From the IMG/VR virus record IMGVR_UViG_2706794698_000014: DNA of 7,271 bases, one strand, 5' to 3'. The notes below the pieces were generated by a model. It had not been told where the DNA came from. It saw only the letters and a list, made by a program, of their open reading frames with translations, and did no database searches. Positions 2,970-6,858 of this stretch are shown here, one piece after another. The DNA is from a virus (Duplodnaviria > Heunggongvirae > Uroviricota > Caudoviricetes). Position numbers and translations under genes: made by a program. Each line of letters begins with the position of its first letter. Within the stretch, counting starts at the first letter, position 1.

Positions 2970-3523
2970 TTCTCAATCTCTCGATGGCGCAGCGCAGCAG
3001 ATGCCAGTTGTTCAGGCNNNNNNNNNNNNNNNNNNNNNNNNNNNNNNNNNNNNNNNNNNNNNNNNNNNNNNNNNNNNNNNNNNNNNNNNNNNNNNNNNNN
3101 NNNNNNNNNNNNNNNNNNNNNNNNNNNNNNNNNNNNNNNNNNNNNNNNNNNNNNNNNNNNNNNNNNNNNNNNNNNNNNNNNNNNNNNNNNNNNNNNNNNN
3201 NNNNNNNNNNNNNNNNNNNNNNNNNNNNNNNNNNNNNNNNNNNNNNNNNNNNNNNNNNNNNNNNNNNNNNNNNNNNNNNCAGNNNNNNNNNNNNNNNNNN
3301 NNNNNNNNNNNNNNNNNNNNNNNNNNNNNNNNNNNNNNNNNNNNNNNNNNNNNNNNNNNNNNNNNNNNNNNNNNNNNNNNNNNNNNNNNNNNNNNNNNNN
3401 NNNNNNNNNNNNNNNNNNNNNNNNNNNNNNNNNNNNNNNNNNNNNNNNNNNNNNNNNNNNNNNNNNNNNNNNNNNNNNNNNNNNNNNNNNNNNNNNNNNN
3501 NNNNNNNNNNNNNNNNNNNNNNN

Positions 3524-3935: not shown

Positions 3936-4091
3936 TTACTTCCTGGATTCGTAGTCTACGAAGACAGCGACCTCCGTCTGGCCGGTTCGGATTCGTACCT
4001 CACAGAGGTCTTTCCTCGTTACCAGTGCCGTCACTATGACGGTTAAACAGATGACGATCAGGGCGATTAACATCGCCTTTTGCTGCTTCAT
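3936..4091 (-). CDS. hok: Hok/Gef-family type I toxin (small membrane toxin), 51 aa: MKQQKAMLIALIVICLTVIVTALVTRKDLCEVRIRTGQTEVAVFVDYESRK
   Basis: ATG at 4089-4091 with an AAGGAG Shine-Dalgarno 9 nt upstream; stop at 3936-3938. The first ~45 residues match HokD/RelF of E. coli Qin as I remember it, with a divergent C-terminus. The 70-aa ORF in the track is an in-frame upstream extension (mok-like). Confidence 0.85.
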   Translation of the reverse strand: MKQQKAMLIALIVICLTVIVTALVTRKDLCEVRIRTGQTEVAVFVDYESRK

Positions 4092-4139
4092 AGCCTGCTT
4101 CTCCTTGCCTTTCGGCATGTAAGAGGCTAACCTACATGT

Positions 4140-4215
4140 GCAAAGCATGAAATTGGCCTCAGATTAATGTTAAGCGTCTTGCCGGACGCGTAATGTTAAC
4201 TGGGGCTTTTCTCTA
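4140..4215 (+). ncRNA. sok: Hypothesised Sok-like antisense RNA opposite the hok leader and upstream (mok-like) initiation region; boundaries approximate
   Basis: Inference from hok-locus architecture. A possible plus-strand promoter (TTGCCT 4105-4110, 17-nt spacer, TAACCT 4128-4133) would give a transcript antisense to the upstream in-frame ATG at 4146-4148 and its GAGG Shine-Dalgarno. An imperfect hairpin around 4171-4194 and a T-rich run at 4207-4215 follow. No direct evidence of the RNA. Confidence 0.2.
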
Positions 4216-4267
4216 TCTGCCTTTTGGTGTTCATGCCTGAAGCAGATAGCCTCAAGCACCCGCAGTC

Positions 4268-4297: not shown

Positions 4298-4318
4298 TCA
4301 GAAAGGTGCCCCATAAAA

Positions 4319-5005
4319 TCACTCCTTCTCTTCTTTACCGTAGTGGAGTTGACCAATTTTGATAAGAGGGCGTCCCTGAGATTTGCGGTGTAGATTGGTA
4401 TCGCGCAGAGAATACACACAGCCACAATATTCCTGCTGATAGAATTTTTCGCGCTTGCTGATTTCAATCATACGGGACGAGCCGCCCTGCTTGCGCCAGT
4501 TATAATCCCAGTACACCATGCCCGGATAATGCGCGACGGCTCGCCGCCCACAGTCGTTAACCTGCTGCATATTTTTCCAGCGTGAAATGCCCAGTGAACT
4601 GCTGATCACACTGAAACCATTTTCAGCGGCGTACAGCGCTGTCCGCTCAAAACGCATGTCAAAACACATGGTGCAACGGATCCCTCGTTCGGGCTCCCAT
4701 TCCATTCCTTTGGCTCGTTCAAACCAGTTGTCTGTGTCGTAATCAGCATCAATAAACGGCACGCCGTGTTGTTCAGCAAAGCGAATATTCTCATCCTTAC
4801 GAATTAAATACTCTTTCTGAGGATGAATGTTCGGGTTGTAGAAAAAGATGGTGTAGTCGATTCCCGAGGCCTGAAGCGCCTCCATCACCTCACCGGAACA
4901 TGGAGCACAGCAAGAGTGCAGTAGTAGTTTGTTTGCCCCGTTTGGGAGCTCCAATTTGGGCCGTTTGAAATCAGCAACTGTCATAAATATGTTTATTGGG
5001 GTCAT
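4319..5005 (-). CDS. DUF208 / QueH-like protein (epoxyqueuosine reductase family homologue), 228 aa
   Basis: Translation contains [11 protein letters not shown] near the N-terminus, a central C-x-x-C (IRCTMCF) and a C-terminal EYCGC, which I recall as conserved cysteine motifs of the DUF208/QueH family. No clear Shine-Dalgarno before either ATG (5003-5005 or 4982-4984), so the start is uncertain. Confidence 0.5.
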
Positions 5006-5152
5006 AAAAATATCAAAGAGTGTAGCATTAGAACGGGGCTATCGGAAACAGATGTGTGACTGCTCCCCGCCCTTTCGGGTGGTCTCCTGATGATTTGAGG
5101 GTGCAGAAATCCCTCCGGTTAAGGATTAAATTTTTAACAGTGCTAAATTTAA

Positions 5153-5509
5153 TTATTCAGTTCTGGATTTTGTCGCCCTGCGTATCCGCGCTTTCGCGTT
5201 ACGCTCAATCTGTATCAGCTTTTCTATATTTCTCCGCCTTTCCTGTTCCTCCTGGCGCAATAGCCTTACATCATCTGCCAGTCTGGTTTCTCTTTTTGCC
5301 ACAGAGAGCATCCAGTCAAACGGCTCCACAACCGCACCGCAGATTTTACAGCGGACCTGACGCTCTTTTTCGTCAACCCGTACAGAGGCGTGATGGCAAT
5401 ATGGTCTTTCCGATGGCTCATAAAGAAAATTAACCTGATTACGAGGGTCATCCTCTTTTACCGGAAATAAAACGATATTGCTTAACTCATCTTCTGGTTT
5501 TATTTCCAT
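5153..5509 (-). CDS. Hypothetical zinc-ribbon protein with a basic coiled-coil C-terminus, 118 aa
   Basis: ATG at 5507-5509 preceded by a strong AGGAGAGGAG Shine-Dalgarno. C-x-H-H…C-K-I-C-G motif followed by an R/E/K-rich tail. The ORF-track start at 5566 (ATG directly abutting the upstream stop, TGAATG) is a possible but less likely start. Confidence 0.5.
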   Translation of the reverse strand: MEIKPEDELSNIVLFPVKEDDPRNQVNFLYEPSERPYCHHASVRVDEKERQVRCKICGAVVEPFDWMLSVAKRETRLADDVRLLRQEEQERRRNIEKLIQIERNAKARIRRATKSRTE

Positions 5510-5566
5510 GCTCCTCTCCTTTGATGCGAATGCCAGCGGTAATTGAAGCCTGATAGCTAATTTCAT

Positions 5567-5989
5567 TCACAGTATCGCCTCCTGAAAATTACCCTGATAG
5601 AAAGCCAGTACACGCTGCATAGCTTCGCTCTTCCGGCACTCGCGACAGATTATATTCAGGCGCCTGTCGTAGCGGCGTATTTCTCCGTCAGGTAATGACC
5701 AGATAAGGTCCGGATCAACAACAACCGGTTTCCTCACCTTTACTCTCGAGAGTTTTTTGCGGGCGCTTTGCCAGTCCTTGCGAGCCTGTTCAGACGGGAA
5801 TAAGCCGTAGCCAGAATTATATACATCACCACTTGCGACCAGTTCTATGCATAAGCGACCGACAGACGCACGACTGATACCTGTTTCATCTGACAACTGC
5901 CGAATCGTGACCCGACCGTCCTGATGCACGAGTTCCACAATTCGCGTCTTCAGTTCTTCCCGCTGTTCGGGAGTAAAAGGTTTCGCCAT
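5567..5989 (-). CDS. Hypothetical winged-helix/HTH DNA-binding protein, 140 aa
   Basis: ATG at 5987-5989 with an AGGAGG Shine-Dalgarno 6 nt upstream. Segment VTIRQLSDETGISRASVGRLCIELVASGDV looks like a helix-turn-helix. The family is not recognised. Confidence 0.55.
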   Translation of the reverse strand: MAKPFTPEQREELKTRIVELVHQDGRVTIRQLSDETGISRASVGRLCIELVASGDVYNSGYGLFPSEQARKDWQSARKKLSRVKVRKPVVVDPDLIWSLPDGEIRRYDRRLNIICRECRKSEAMQRVLAFYQGNFQEAIL

Positions 5990-6052
5990 AAATCCTCCTG
6001 AAACTACTTAACAACCCTCGAATGGCTAACATTCGGACGCCAGCTCTCCCAG

Positions 6053-6522
6053 TTAAAATTCACCCAGCGNNNNNNNNNNNNNNNNNNNNNNNNNNNNNNN
6101 NNNNNNNNNNNNNNNNNNNNNNNNNNNNNNNNNNNNNNNNNNNNNNNNNNNNNNNNNNNNNNNNNNNNNNNNNNNNNNNNNNNNNNNNNNNNNNNNNNNN
6201 NNNNNNNNNNNNNNNNNNNNNNNNNNNNNNNNNNNNNNNNNNNNNNNNNNNNNNNNNNNNNNNNNNNNNNNNNNNNNNNNNNNNNNNNNNNNNNNNNNNN
6301 NNNNNNNNNNNNNNNNNNNNNNGATAGCTGCCGCTAAGTGATTCTTCCCGGTACCAGGTTTTCCGCTGAACGCAAAATTTGTACACCCGGTCATCAGTTC
6401 ATCGGCGATGGATTTCGCCTGGCTTAACGCGTATCGCTGGCCGTCGTTCTGCACCTGGTAATTCGCAAACGAGCATTTACGGTGCAACGGCTGGATGCCT
6501 GAGCGATTCAGAATTTTTTCCA
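6053..6522 (-). CDS. DnaC-like helicase loader (AAA+ DnaC/IstB family), 3' portion. The frame continues into the masked block 6523-6772, where the true start must lie (a stop at 6773-6775 closes the frame just beyond the mask).
   Basis: Visible translation …LNRSGIQPLHRKCSFANYQVQNDGQRYALSQAKSIADELMTGCTNFAFSGKPGTGKNHLAAAI… aligns without gaps to E. coli DnaC residues ~57-119, including the Walker A motif GKPGTGKNHLAAAI. The M at 6487 in the ORF track is a TTG and is internal. Stop at 6053-6055. Confidence 0.8.
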
Positions 6523-6858
6523 NNNNNNNNNNNNNNNNNNNNNNNNNNNNNNNNNNNNNNNNNNNNNNNNNNNNNNNNNNNNNNNNNNNNNNNNNNNNNN
6601 NNNNNNNNNNNNNNNNNNNNNNNNNNNNNNNNNNNNNNNNNNNNNNNNNNNNNNNNNNNNNNNNNNNNNNNNNNNNNNNNNNNNNNNNNNNNNNNNNNNN
6701 NNNNNNNNNNNNNNNNNNNNNNNNNNNNNNNNNNNNNNNNNNNNNNNNNNNNNNNNNNNNNNNNNNNNNNNNTCAATAGCCTCCGGCTCGAATTTTTTAG
6801 ACGCTCGTTTTTGGCGAGGGGGAGATCAGTATTTAGATCTTCCTCTTCCTCTTCCTCT

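Follow-up and report, generated by a model that had tools for sequence, protein, structure and literature searches.

The two adjacent genes described here, gene 1 and gene 2, are already-catalogued mosaic cassettes of the lambdoid early-right operon. They occupy positions 5,153 to 5,989 of the window, the whole 7,271-nt stretch of viral DNA that we analysed. We consider it highly probable that the two are independent members of the early-right (replication/nin) operon in a lambdoid prophage of the Rac/DLP12 type, that they stand side by side through mosaic recombination, and that they are read from an upstream early promoter and have no promoters of their own. To judge from its sequence, gene 1 encodes an ordinary Ren-type early protein of lambdoid phages. 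Gene 2 encodes a predicted zinc knuckle followed by a long helix. A sequence-only reading had held that neither gene could be placed in a known family. This holds for gene 2, which has no characterised relative, but not for gene 1, which falls into DUF977 and PHROG 142 and can be related to Ren.

Gene organization at the locus

In this E. coli prophage of the Rac/DLP12 type, the minus strand carries both genes, and the window is 99.8% identical to the annotated RefSeq prophage record NZ_CP065615. The two open reading frames of 140 and 118 aa are present as first described, each with a strong Shine-Dalgarno sequence (AGGAGG and AGGAGAGGAG). The flanking genes had also been named correctly as DnaC-like and QueH-like, as seen from the NZ_CP065615 annotation and from Pfam, respectively, and to call the region hypervariable and lambdoid is an apt description. 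From upstream to downstream, the features are as follows.

6004..6750, minus strand: DnaC-like replication gene ydaV (upstream), mostly N-masked in the window; taken from the NZ_CP065615 annotation
5994..5999, minus strand: Shine-Dalgarno sequence AGGAGG of gene 1, 4 nt before the ATG; read from the sequence
5567..5989, minus strand: gene 1, 140 aa; Ren-like; Pfam DUF977; PHROG 142; RefSeq WP_001118169.1 'DUF977 family protein'
5792..5971, minus strand: N-terminal winged HTH of gene 1, residues ~7-66; HTH_24, HTH_IclR and MarR_2 matches
5588..5695, minus strand: C-terminal motif of gene 1, LPDGEIRRYDRxxNIICRECRKSEAMQRVLAFYQG, residues 99-134; common to the lambda Ren C-terminus
5510..5566, minus strand: spacer between gene 1 and gene 2, 57 nt; in frame with both genes
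5511..5520, minus strand: Shine-Dalgarno sequence AGGAGAGGAG of gene 2; read from the sequence
5153..5509, minus strand: gene 2, 118 aa; predicted zinc knuckle and long helix; PHROG 1621; RefSeq hypothetical protein WP_001343130.1
5339..5398, minus strand: predicted zinc knuckle of gene 2, C38-x-H40...C54-x-x-C57; conserved columns, predicted beta hairpin
5159..5323, minus strand: single long helix of gene 2, residues 63-117; predicted by AF2
5180-5230, minus strand: basic tip of the gene 2 helix, N-I-E-K-L-I-Q-I-E-R-N-A-K-A-R-I-R, residues 94-110
4319..5005, minus strand: QueH cassette (downstream); Pfam QueH, 1.9e-65

Each of the two reading frames has many homologues, and in the gene 2 homologues of other genera, at 45-58% identity, both ligand residues and tail are retained. 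By this homology, therefore, both are true genes and not chance reading frames. A mechanical list of open reading frames gives gene 2 as 137 aa from position 5566. The 118-aa start is supported by the PHROG 1621 profile, which opens at residue 20 of the 137-aa frame, by the RefSeq call of 118 aa (WP_001343130.1) and by homologues in other genera, which begin at the same methionine. The 27 nt of the spacer closest to gene 2 contain its ribosome-binding site, and in one fusion of an Ea22 gene with gene 2 they are coding ('LAFASKERS'). On the other side, a gap of 147 nt separates gene 2 from QueH.

Consensus scans of the coding strand from 4300 to 6100 gave no sigma-70-like promoter and no intrinsic terminator. 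By such scans, which weak signals could escape, neither gene carries the flanking promoter and terminator of its own that are expected of a moron. The expression timing proposed here is read from consensus scans only. In PADLOC-DB 2.0 there was no match for gene 2 or QueH, and gene 1 had only weak generic winged-HTH matches (E at least 0.0017), and NCBIfam gave no matches for the genes. The only Rfam match, sok, lies outside the gene pair.

Gene 1 and lambda Ren

Gene 1 matches Pfam DUF977 (PF06163) with 116.5 bits against a gathering cut-off of 22.1 (E = 1.1e-33; residues 1-136 on profile positions 1-134 of 134) and PHROG 142, labelled 'Ren-like exclusion protein', at 2.7e-44 (profile positions 1-115 of 116). 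It is a full-length member of the DUF977/'LygF' proteins of Rac-like and Stx phages, with 72-77% identity to the phage copies and the same position. We see no difference of substance between them, and this family lacks a function defined by experiment. Phage records call the homologues of gene 1 either 'Ren-like exclusion protein' or LygF. In the literature on DUF977, LygF, Ren/Rex and nin-region zinc proteins, we found no functional study of the family of gene 1 or of that of gene 2.

The winged HTH that had been read in gene 1 is confirmed by a Pfam HTH_24 match of 26 bits (cut-off 21.9) and by an AF2 model that is confident for residues 7-82, with pLDDT of 89-94 over the winged HTH. Foldseek searches with this model retrieved winged-helix regulators of the IclR, MarR and GntR types. 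Among 42 alleles of the family, variation falls in the winged-HTH N-domain, and the C-terminal motif is almost invariant.

Lambda Ren (NP_040633, 96 aa) itself matches PHROG 142 at 1.6e-41 (profile positions 11-110 of 116). When the 42-allele alignment was compared with lambda Ren by hhalign, the two matched with 95.3% probability (E = 2.1e-8) over 89 columns, which place gene 1 residues 15-132 on Ren residues 5-93. By BLASTP, the match covers Ren residues 73-92 alone (60% identity, E = 3e-7), and identity is low beyond the last 20 aligned residues. Both proteins consist of a winged HTH followed by a C-terminal ECRxSxAMxRVLAxY, and both genes come immediately downstream of the helicase-loader gene: the order ydaV then DUF977 at locus L001, and likewise in Rac-SA53, corresponds to P then ren in lambda. 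They differ in length: gene 1 exceeds Ren by 44 residues and has an additional helix and a disordered linker (~67-104). Ren lacks this linker of roughly 40 residues. Furthermore, Ren has no Pfam DUF977 match even at E = 1. We assign gene 1 to the Ren type because of its DUF977 membership, the PHROG 142 match that it has in common with Ren, the hhalign match and its ren position after the replication genes.

That YdaW might be a DUF977 protein was considered and rejected, since YdaW of K-12 belongs to DUF1627 / PHROG 630. It compares with gene 1 at E = 0.05 by BLASTP and with PHROG 142 at just 2e-4. The YdaW of the E. coli K-12 Rac prophage has the same slot after ydaV and a winged-HTH N-terminus, but it is of another family than gene 1. 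It has been published that ydaW blocks the retron toxin RcaT; because of the difference in family, this result is not transferable to gene 1.

Gene 2 and its family

Gene 2 matches PHROG 1621 at 5e-56 (profile positions 1-120 of 134). It has 148 close homologues, and its family comprises 1647 representative clusters (50% identity) at E <= 1e-3, found in temperate and apparently virulent phages. All 63 diverse homologues match the PHROG 1621, 8538 or 4865 profiles. The C-x-H...C-x-x-C site and the ERNAKARIR helix are common to gene 2 and this family. These three PHROGs hold phage proteins without known function, so that membership provides a name and not a function.

The letters of the metal motif are C38-H39-H40...C54-x-x-C57, which had been read as a C-x-H-H...C-x-x-C zinc ribbon. 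A conserved Cys/His site is indeed there, but its conserved pattern is C-x-H-x13-C-x-x-C and not C-x-H-H: across the 63 homologues, the three cysteines (C38, C54 and C57) never vary, and the conservation of H40 is at least 90%. AF2 predicts strands at residues 43-46 and 51-54, and it bears out the charged helical tail as one helix of residues 63-117, with pLDDT of 82-95 over residues 71-110. The N-terminal third is of low confidence (pLDDT 54-63). The helix shows a hydrophobic pattern, and its tip has invariant columns in alignment A1; in alignment A2, N104 and R108 are at least 90% conserved.

No Pfam family matches gene 2 above threshold, and the 63 homologues gave only zinc-ribbon and coiled-coil families below threshold. 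For example, the TFIIB zinc ribbon (PF08271) reached 21.1-21.5 bits against a cut-off of 29. Sequence searches of the PDB with two profiles returned coiled-coil noise only, and Foldseek against the PDB and BFVD gave nothing at E <= 0.001 (best PDB match 1pft, E = 0.42). The TFIIB-type and ribosomal S27e-type zinc ribbons have a similar small beta-hairpin metal knuckle with C-x-x-C. However, the ligands of gene 2 are Cys3-His and not Cys4, and its 55-residue helix is lacking in those domains. A search of phage genomes with a high-GC member of the family returned just the known Klebsiella phage.

The Nin proteins of lambda share the genomic compartment, the homologues of gene 2 in other genera being in the NinH/NinI position, from NinG/RusA to Q. 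There is no sequence relationship, though, as hhalign against NinB-NinI gave a probability of at most 14.6%, the best being NinF with the C-x-x-C only. Two leads, an HNH-like beta-beta-alpha nuclease and a DksA/TraR-like protein, seem unlikely, because the only invariant polar residues other than the metal ligands are far down the helix, and because the domain order is the reverse of that in DksA. An arginine-rich or bZIP-like nucleic-acid-binding helix was a further lead that we considered.

Genomic contexts of gene 1 and gene 2

Our census covered 5426 complete genomes of E. coli. In 1679 of them (31%) gene 2 is present, DUF977 is in 3617, and 973 have the junction of DUF977 with gene 2. Where 86 copies of gene 2 could be scored, DUF977 was directly upstream in 47 (55%); in 30 it was 1-4 kb off, separated by other genes, and in 9 the flank had no DUF977. 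The adjacent DUF977 alleles have 50-100% identity, as against 97.5-100% for gene 2. In Rac-SA53, DUF977 is followed by other genes. The sampled viral loci are the best 80 of 504 and lean towards relatives of the window.

Elsewhere, gene 2 lies behind Ead/Ea22 genes, namely in ArgO145 and Stx2a phages, in a P1-like phage and in Enterobacter phage Tyrion. In ArgO145 the Ea22 gene shares 23 nt with the beginning of gene 2, in Tyrion it is directly upstream, and in 9 of 30 spread-sampled E. coli copies an Ea22 gene overlaps the match. In Kluyvera, three Erwinia species, Photorhabdus, Pantoea and a Klebsiella phage, gene 2 comes after NinG, RusA, DUF968 or DUF1364. At six of these seven loci a Q antiterminator is found downstream, directly or past one small gene, with the Qs belonging to two Pfam families. 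No DUF977 was detectable adjoining the gene 2 homologue at six loci of other genera. More distant members occur among the small early genes of unrelated phages, without DUF977.

Gene 2 is also found in fusion proteins. In-frame DUF977::gene 2 fusions are rare (four 278-aa clusters). There are several independent Ea22::gene 2 fusions of 202-264 aa with differing Ea22 N-termini, and their joint always falls between AELEAR and EIKPEDEL, i.e., at gene 2 residue 2. Fusions of gene 2 to DUF1133 proteins occur as well. As for the downstream neighbour, QueH is present in 995 of the genomes, and the gene 2-QueH junction in 2 of 5426. Gene 1, gene 2 and QueH are contiguous in 14 of 86 sampled loci, mainly in Shigella/E. 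coli relatives of the window.

Discussion

We suggest that the pairing of gene 1 and gene 2 is a by-product of lambdoid mosaicism and has no importance as a module. The two had been proposed to form a two-gene module, which would be expected to show adjacency across divergent lineages and co-variation of the partners. We found neither: co-occurrence is not conserved across genera, and the partner alleles vary while gene 2 stays constant. The sequence-only reading had itself named clear Ren-type homology with no conserved co-occurrence as the outcome that would speak against it, and this is what gene 1 presents. A functional module, whether a regulator/effector, a toxin-antitoxin-like or a defence/counter-defence pair, is thus quite unlikely. 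Its attractions are that both genes are small, early, strongly translated and in frame with each other, that their junction recurs in 973 genomes, that the rare read-through fusions could hint at a functional link, and that exclusion phenomena are tied to Ren-type proteins through the PHROG label. However, gene 2 does without DUF977 behind Ea22, in P1-like phages, in unrelated phages and, in other genera, next to Q, and it is missing beside most DUF977 copies. It has been fused to Ea22 and DUF1133 proteins equally readily, and for the pair there was neither a PADLOC match nor a separate promoter or terminator. The extension of this idea, in which gene 1, gene 2 and QueH are a co-inherited three-gene cargo block, is extremely unlikely. 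Although the three are contiguous in the window and in the 14 sampled loci, the block is refuted by the junction counts, with 2 junctions in 5426 genomes set against 995 genomes with QueH and 1679 with gene 2, and the 147-nt gap before QueH also argues against it.

If gene 2 has a partner, the Ead/Ea22 family could be considered, in which case gene 2 would be a C-terminal module, detachable from early proteins of the Ea22 type and acting in the same process as they do. This is conceivable but doubtful. The independent fusions with their single joint, the arrangements in ArgO145, Tyrion and the 9 of 30 spread-sampled copies, and the fusion in which the 27 nt before gene 2 are coding all favor it. 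Yet in about half of the copies the preceding gene is DUF977 and Ea22 is missing, the homologues of other genera are placed after nucleases and before Q, and, since Ea22 proteins are notorious mosaics, the shared recombination joint may be structural and not functional. That nearness to Q in turn raises the idea of a transcription or antitermination accessory, binding RNA polymerase or RNA and tied to the Q step, which we regard as unlikely. Six of the seven other-genera loci, the weak TFIIB-type zinc-ribbon matches (Pfam 21 bits; Foldseek E = 0.4) and the Arg/Lys-rich invariant helix tip are consistent with such a factor. Against it, the neighbouring Qs come from different families, so that the link looks positional; gene 2 of E. 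coli is usually far from Q; every zinc-ribbon match is sub-threshold; and the distant members are not near antiterminators.

We therefore favor two independent genes of the early-right operon. Gene 1 would be the local allele of the ren-slot gene. Lambda Ren is known for conferring resistance to Rex exclusion. Published work mentions contacts of Ren with the Rex proteins in two-hybrid assays, as well as a likely replication role, and shows that P-lethality does not depend on Ren. We infer a Ren-like activity for gene 1 from its sequence: it would be a small protein produced early, along with the replication proteins, and it may help an infecting or induced phage to escape Rex-type exclusion, probably through protein contacts and not as a classical repressor. 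Through the link of Pfam DUF977 to lambda Ren, the thousands of 'DUF977 family' annotations gain a biological anchor.

Gene 2 would be a self-contained mobile cassette, composed of the reading frame and the roughly 27 nt before it that hold its own ribosome-binding site, and it is found in many phage contexts. Its product is predicted to bind one zinc ion and may dimerise via the helix, and during early lytic development the invariant Asn/Arg/Lys tip could hold on to a nucleic acid or to a conserved protein of the host. Going beyond this, we give a low probability to a broader proposal. Here the gene 2 family would be a large unnamed family of early proteins in which knuckle and helix tip target one conserved host or nucleic-acid component, for example as an anti-defence protein or as a takeover factor that binds RNA or the polymerase. 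Downstream of the replication genes, the slot filled by Ren, DUF977, YdaW and then the gene 2, Ea22 and QueH cassettes would then be a counter-defence island and not a set of dispensable genes. The gene 2 family is a large and cleanly defined orphan of modest residual interest that is cheap to test. Its ligand, once found, would annotate many phage genes together.

Prophage setting of the gene pair

Both genes are real and have an ordinary explanation: gene 1 is an already catalogued Ren-type gene, and gene 2 is a catalogued phage cassette of unknown function. The window is part of a lambdoid prophage whose genes run along the minus strand.

Features in gene order
Minus strand, first in order, largely N-masked: DnaC-like replication gene
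5989..5567, minus: gene 1, 140-aa ORF
Between gene 1 and gene 2: spacer, 57 nt
5509..5153, minus: gene 2, 118-aa ORF
5005..4319, minus: QueH (epoxyqueuosine reductase; Pfam 1.9e-65; PHROG 3217, "unknown function")
After QueH, minus: hok/sok, comprising
4086-4261, minus: sok (Rfam RF01794, 117 bits)
4148..3936, minus: Hok/Gef ORF (Pfam 1e-22; RefSeq name HokD)
After hok/sok, minus: DUF1367, DUF1364 and DUF1133 Q-like gene

Two RefSeq E. coli chromosomes are 99.8% identical to bases 5100-6050, with the order ydaV (ATP-binding protein), DUF977 family protein, hypothetical protein (118 aa) and epoxyqueuosine reductase QueH. The surrounding prophage is of Rac/DLP12 type, is riddled with IS elements and has Cro/CI-type regulators, YdaT, lysis genes and tRNAs as well. 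Runs of N at about 530-790, 3020-3520, 6070-6330 and 6500-6770 leave several genes incomplete, among them the DnaC-like ydaV, which is mostly hidden, and a gene that lies between hok and DUF1367. Since the window bases there are N, these masked genes are judged solely from the near-identical RefSeq record.

The sequence-only reading had described two genes with Shine-Dalgarno sequences between a DnaC-like gene and QueH. This observation is confirmed, because the ORFs, both quoted Shine-Dalgarno sequences and the start of gene 2 all check out, and the order holds in the window and in RefSeq. The 118-aa start of gene 2 is correct, as the PHROG profile, the RefSeq call and homologues from other genera all begin at that methionine; on the same three grounds a 137-aa ORF from a mechanical list was rejected as gene 2. 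The window also holds a complete hok/sok type I toxin-antitoxin locus (3936-4261, minus strand), and a promoter-like site just upstream of it (4297-4268) is the only one on the minus strand in that stretch.

Gene 1 and lambda Ren

Neither gene had seemed placeable in a known family. This still describes gene 2, which has no characterised relative, but gene 1 is placed as DUF977/Ren-type. As judged from profile comparisons, gene 1 is a Ren homologue, and so the kind of ordinary lambdoid early protein that had been named as evidence against an uncharacterised module. It matches DUF977 over its full length (116.5 bits against a Pfam cut-off of 22.1), and Pfam also recovers the proposed N-terminal winged HTH; lambda Ren itself has no Pfam match. 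PHROG 142, "Ren-like exclusion protein", is reached by both gene 1 (2.7e-44) and lambda Ren (1.6e-41). Pairwise BLASTP of gene 1 with Ren aligns the C-terminal 20 residues only (60% identity, E = 3e-7). An alignment of 42 DUF977 alleles, drawn from related loci (L005-L096), covers Ren residues 5-93 with 95.3% probability (E = 2e-8). Phage records label gene 1 homologues LygF or "Ren-like exclusion protein". In lambda the gene immediately downstream of P is ren, just as gene 1 directly follows the DnaC-like loader gene; gene 1 differs from Ren by an added helix and by a linker that is disordered. AF2 models residues 1-80 of gene 1 with confidence but residues 84-104 poorly, and a structure search with the N-domain returns IclR/MarR/GntR winged-helix regulators. 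Between DUF977 alleles the winged HTH varies, while the C-terminal LPDGEIRRYDRxxNIICRECRKSEAMQRVLAFYQG is almost invariant. The alleles are mosaic, with several N-terminal winged-HTH types, two linker lengths and a near-invariant C-terminal 40 residues.

Lambda ren mutants are sensitive to Rex exclusion. The lambda gene is co-transcribed with O and P and has been described as "likely involved in DNA replication". Published work also mentions that Ren and the Rex proteins make contact in two-hybrid assays, and shows that P-lethality does not require Ren. From homology and synteny, we suggest that gene 1 most likely acts as a Ren-type early protein. It would be produced together with the replication proteins and, through protein contacts, may sustain phage development despite Rex-like exclusion. 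The link between DUF977 and Ren is part of the residual value of the finding.

YdaW of the K-12 Rac prophage (locus L107, 3253-3813) occupies the same slot after ydaV as gene 1 but belongs to a different family. We rejected it as a DUF977 protein: it is DUF1627/PHROG 630, and it resembles gene 1 only marginally (BLASTP E = 0.05; PHROG 142 at 2e-4). In one screen, ydaW was reported to block the retron toxin RcaT; because of the family difference, this result is not transferable to gene 1. Thus, at least three alternative small winged-HTH proteins fill the post-loader position, namely Ren, DUF977/LygF and YdaW.

Association of gene 1 with gene 2

The pair had been read as a two-gene module, possibly a three-gene block with QueH. 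Among 5426 complete E. coli genomes, gene 2 is found in 1679 (2135 places, 95-99% nucleotide identity), DUF977 in 3617 (5014 places), and the DUF977-to-gene-2 junction in 973 (301-nt probe, at least 80% covered). By these counts adjacency is frequent, yet far from obligate either way. Fetching 92 loci with the gene 2 profile gave 86 scorable copies, the viral loci being the best 80 of 504 and leaning towards window relatives. Of the 86 copies, 47 have DUF977 directly upstream, 30 have it 1-4 kb away on that side, beyond other genes, and nine have none in the flank. In the sampled loci gene 2 is constant at 97.5-100% identity, yet the DUF977 alleles directly next to it show anything from 50 to 100% identity to gene 1, which indicates recombination between the two rather than co-inheritance. 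Conversely, the DUF977 gene of phage Rac-SA53 has other genes after it.

Co-occurrence is thus not conserved, and both partner and context vary. Ead/Ea22 genes precede near-identical gene 2 copies in ArgO145, in Stx2a phages and in one P1-like phage, and Enterobacter phage Tyrion has a 33%-identical homologue after an Ead/Ea22-like gene. Outside Escherichia, gene 2 homologues occupy a fixed place after a junction-resolvase or nuclease gene (L010-L016, L097). Seven loci, from Kluyvera, Photorhabdus, Pantoea, three Erwinia species and a Klebsiella phage, have no DUF977 beside the homologue. The gene before it is NinG, RusA, DUF968 or DUF1364, and in six of the seven a Q antiterminator of either PF06323 or PF06530 type comes immediately downstream or after one small gene. 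Two remote family members are surrounded by small early genes in unrelated phages.

Four rare protein clusters (P0381, P0382, P0385, P0386) could argue for a link between the two genes, being 278-aa DUF977::gene 2 fusions in which the TGA is now a sense codon. Against this, Ead/Ea22 N-terminal regions are joined to gene 2 no less often: nine clusters (P0002, P0004, P0122, P0388-P0393) have different N-termini and the same joint, AELEAR joined to EIKPEDEL. A DUF1133 protein and an unrelated protein each supply one further fusion partner. These assorted fusions mark it as a promiscuous module, not a specific DUF977 partner, and its association with Ea22 is the most interesting lead as a rival explanation. 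Mosaic recombination in the hypervariable slot that follows the replication genes very probably brought gene 1 and gene 2 together. The gene 2 cassette includes about 27 nt upstream, with the ribosome-binding site, and 50-90 nt downstream, boundaries that agree with independent shuffling. A consensus scan of the coding strand found no promoter-like or terminator-like site belonging to gene 1 or gene 2, so both are most simply parts of the early-right transcript.

In the window, the TGA of gene 1 is followed directly and in frame by ATG, 19 codons and gene 2 (5510-5569, minus strand). The Ea22 gene of ArgO145 overlaps the gene 2 start by 23 nt (locus L003, 2989-4357), and P0393, from a 97-kb plasmid, translates 27 nt that are the ribosome-binding region of gene 2 in the window.

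There is no three-gene block, since the gene-2-to-QueH junction occurs in two of the 5426 genomes and QueH alone in 995 (95-99% identity). QueH (4319-5005, minus strand) behaves as an independent cassette; it follows gene 2 in 14 of the 86 sampled copies, mostly close window relatives.

Gene 2 as an orphan family

Gene 2 is a genuine orphan. Its profile matches are to PHROG 1621 (5e-56) and, at weaker scores, to PHROGs 8538 and 4865, none of which has a known function. No Pfam family is reached, the nearest being the TFIIB zinc ribbon, which scores 21 bits where 29 are required. Nothing matched in NCBIfam or PADLOC, and a defence role for the pair finds no support. No relationship to the lambda Nin proteins was found, nor any solved or predicted structural relative in PDB and BFVD searches. 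Close homologues, all annotated hypothetical, occur in Escherichia, Shigella, Salmonella, Klebsiella, Kluyvera, Serratia, Erwinia, Yersinia, Pluralibacter and Morganella. The residual value lies also in the size and sharp conservation of this family: an exhaustive profile search gave 1647 representative clusters at E <= 1e-3.

In 26 sequences with identities as low as 44%, C38, H40, C54 and C57 are invariant, as are the N-terminal E-x-ELSNVVxFP and, above all, the tail LRxEExxRRxNIEKLIQIERNAKARIR. The metal motif had been given as C-x-H-H...C-x-x-C; C-H-H...C-x-x-C is present, but the conserved form is C-x-H-x13-C-x-x-C. The three cysteines are kept without exception in 63 diverse members, where conservation of H40, R50, L98, N104 and R108 is at least 90%; all 63 match the same PHROGs and none exceeds the threshold of any Pfam family. 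The AF2 model (mean pLDDT 74.8, N-terminus of low confidence) has a small beta hairpin with the ligands and a single helix at 63-117 (pLDDT up to 95), in which hydrophobic patches at 64-84 and 95-109 flank a purely charged stretch. What the analysis shows is a conserved set of ligands, together with the predicted hairpin and helix. The ligands probably bind zinc, the helix could mediate dimerisation, and the invariant basic tip may bind nucleic acid or a conserved host protein.

A distant homologue, P0177, occurs in metagenomic phage contigs (L102-L104). Its neighbours are two Cpn10-like genes and a gene whose 2643-aa product has RNA-ligase and FAD-oxidoreductase matches; because of them, the phage may be large and virulent.
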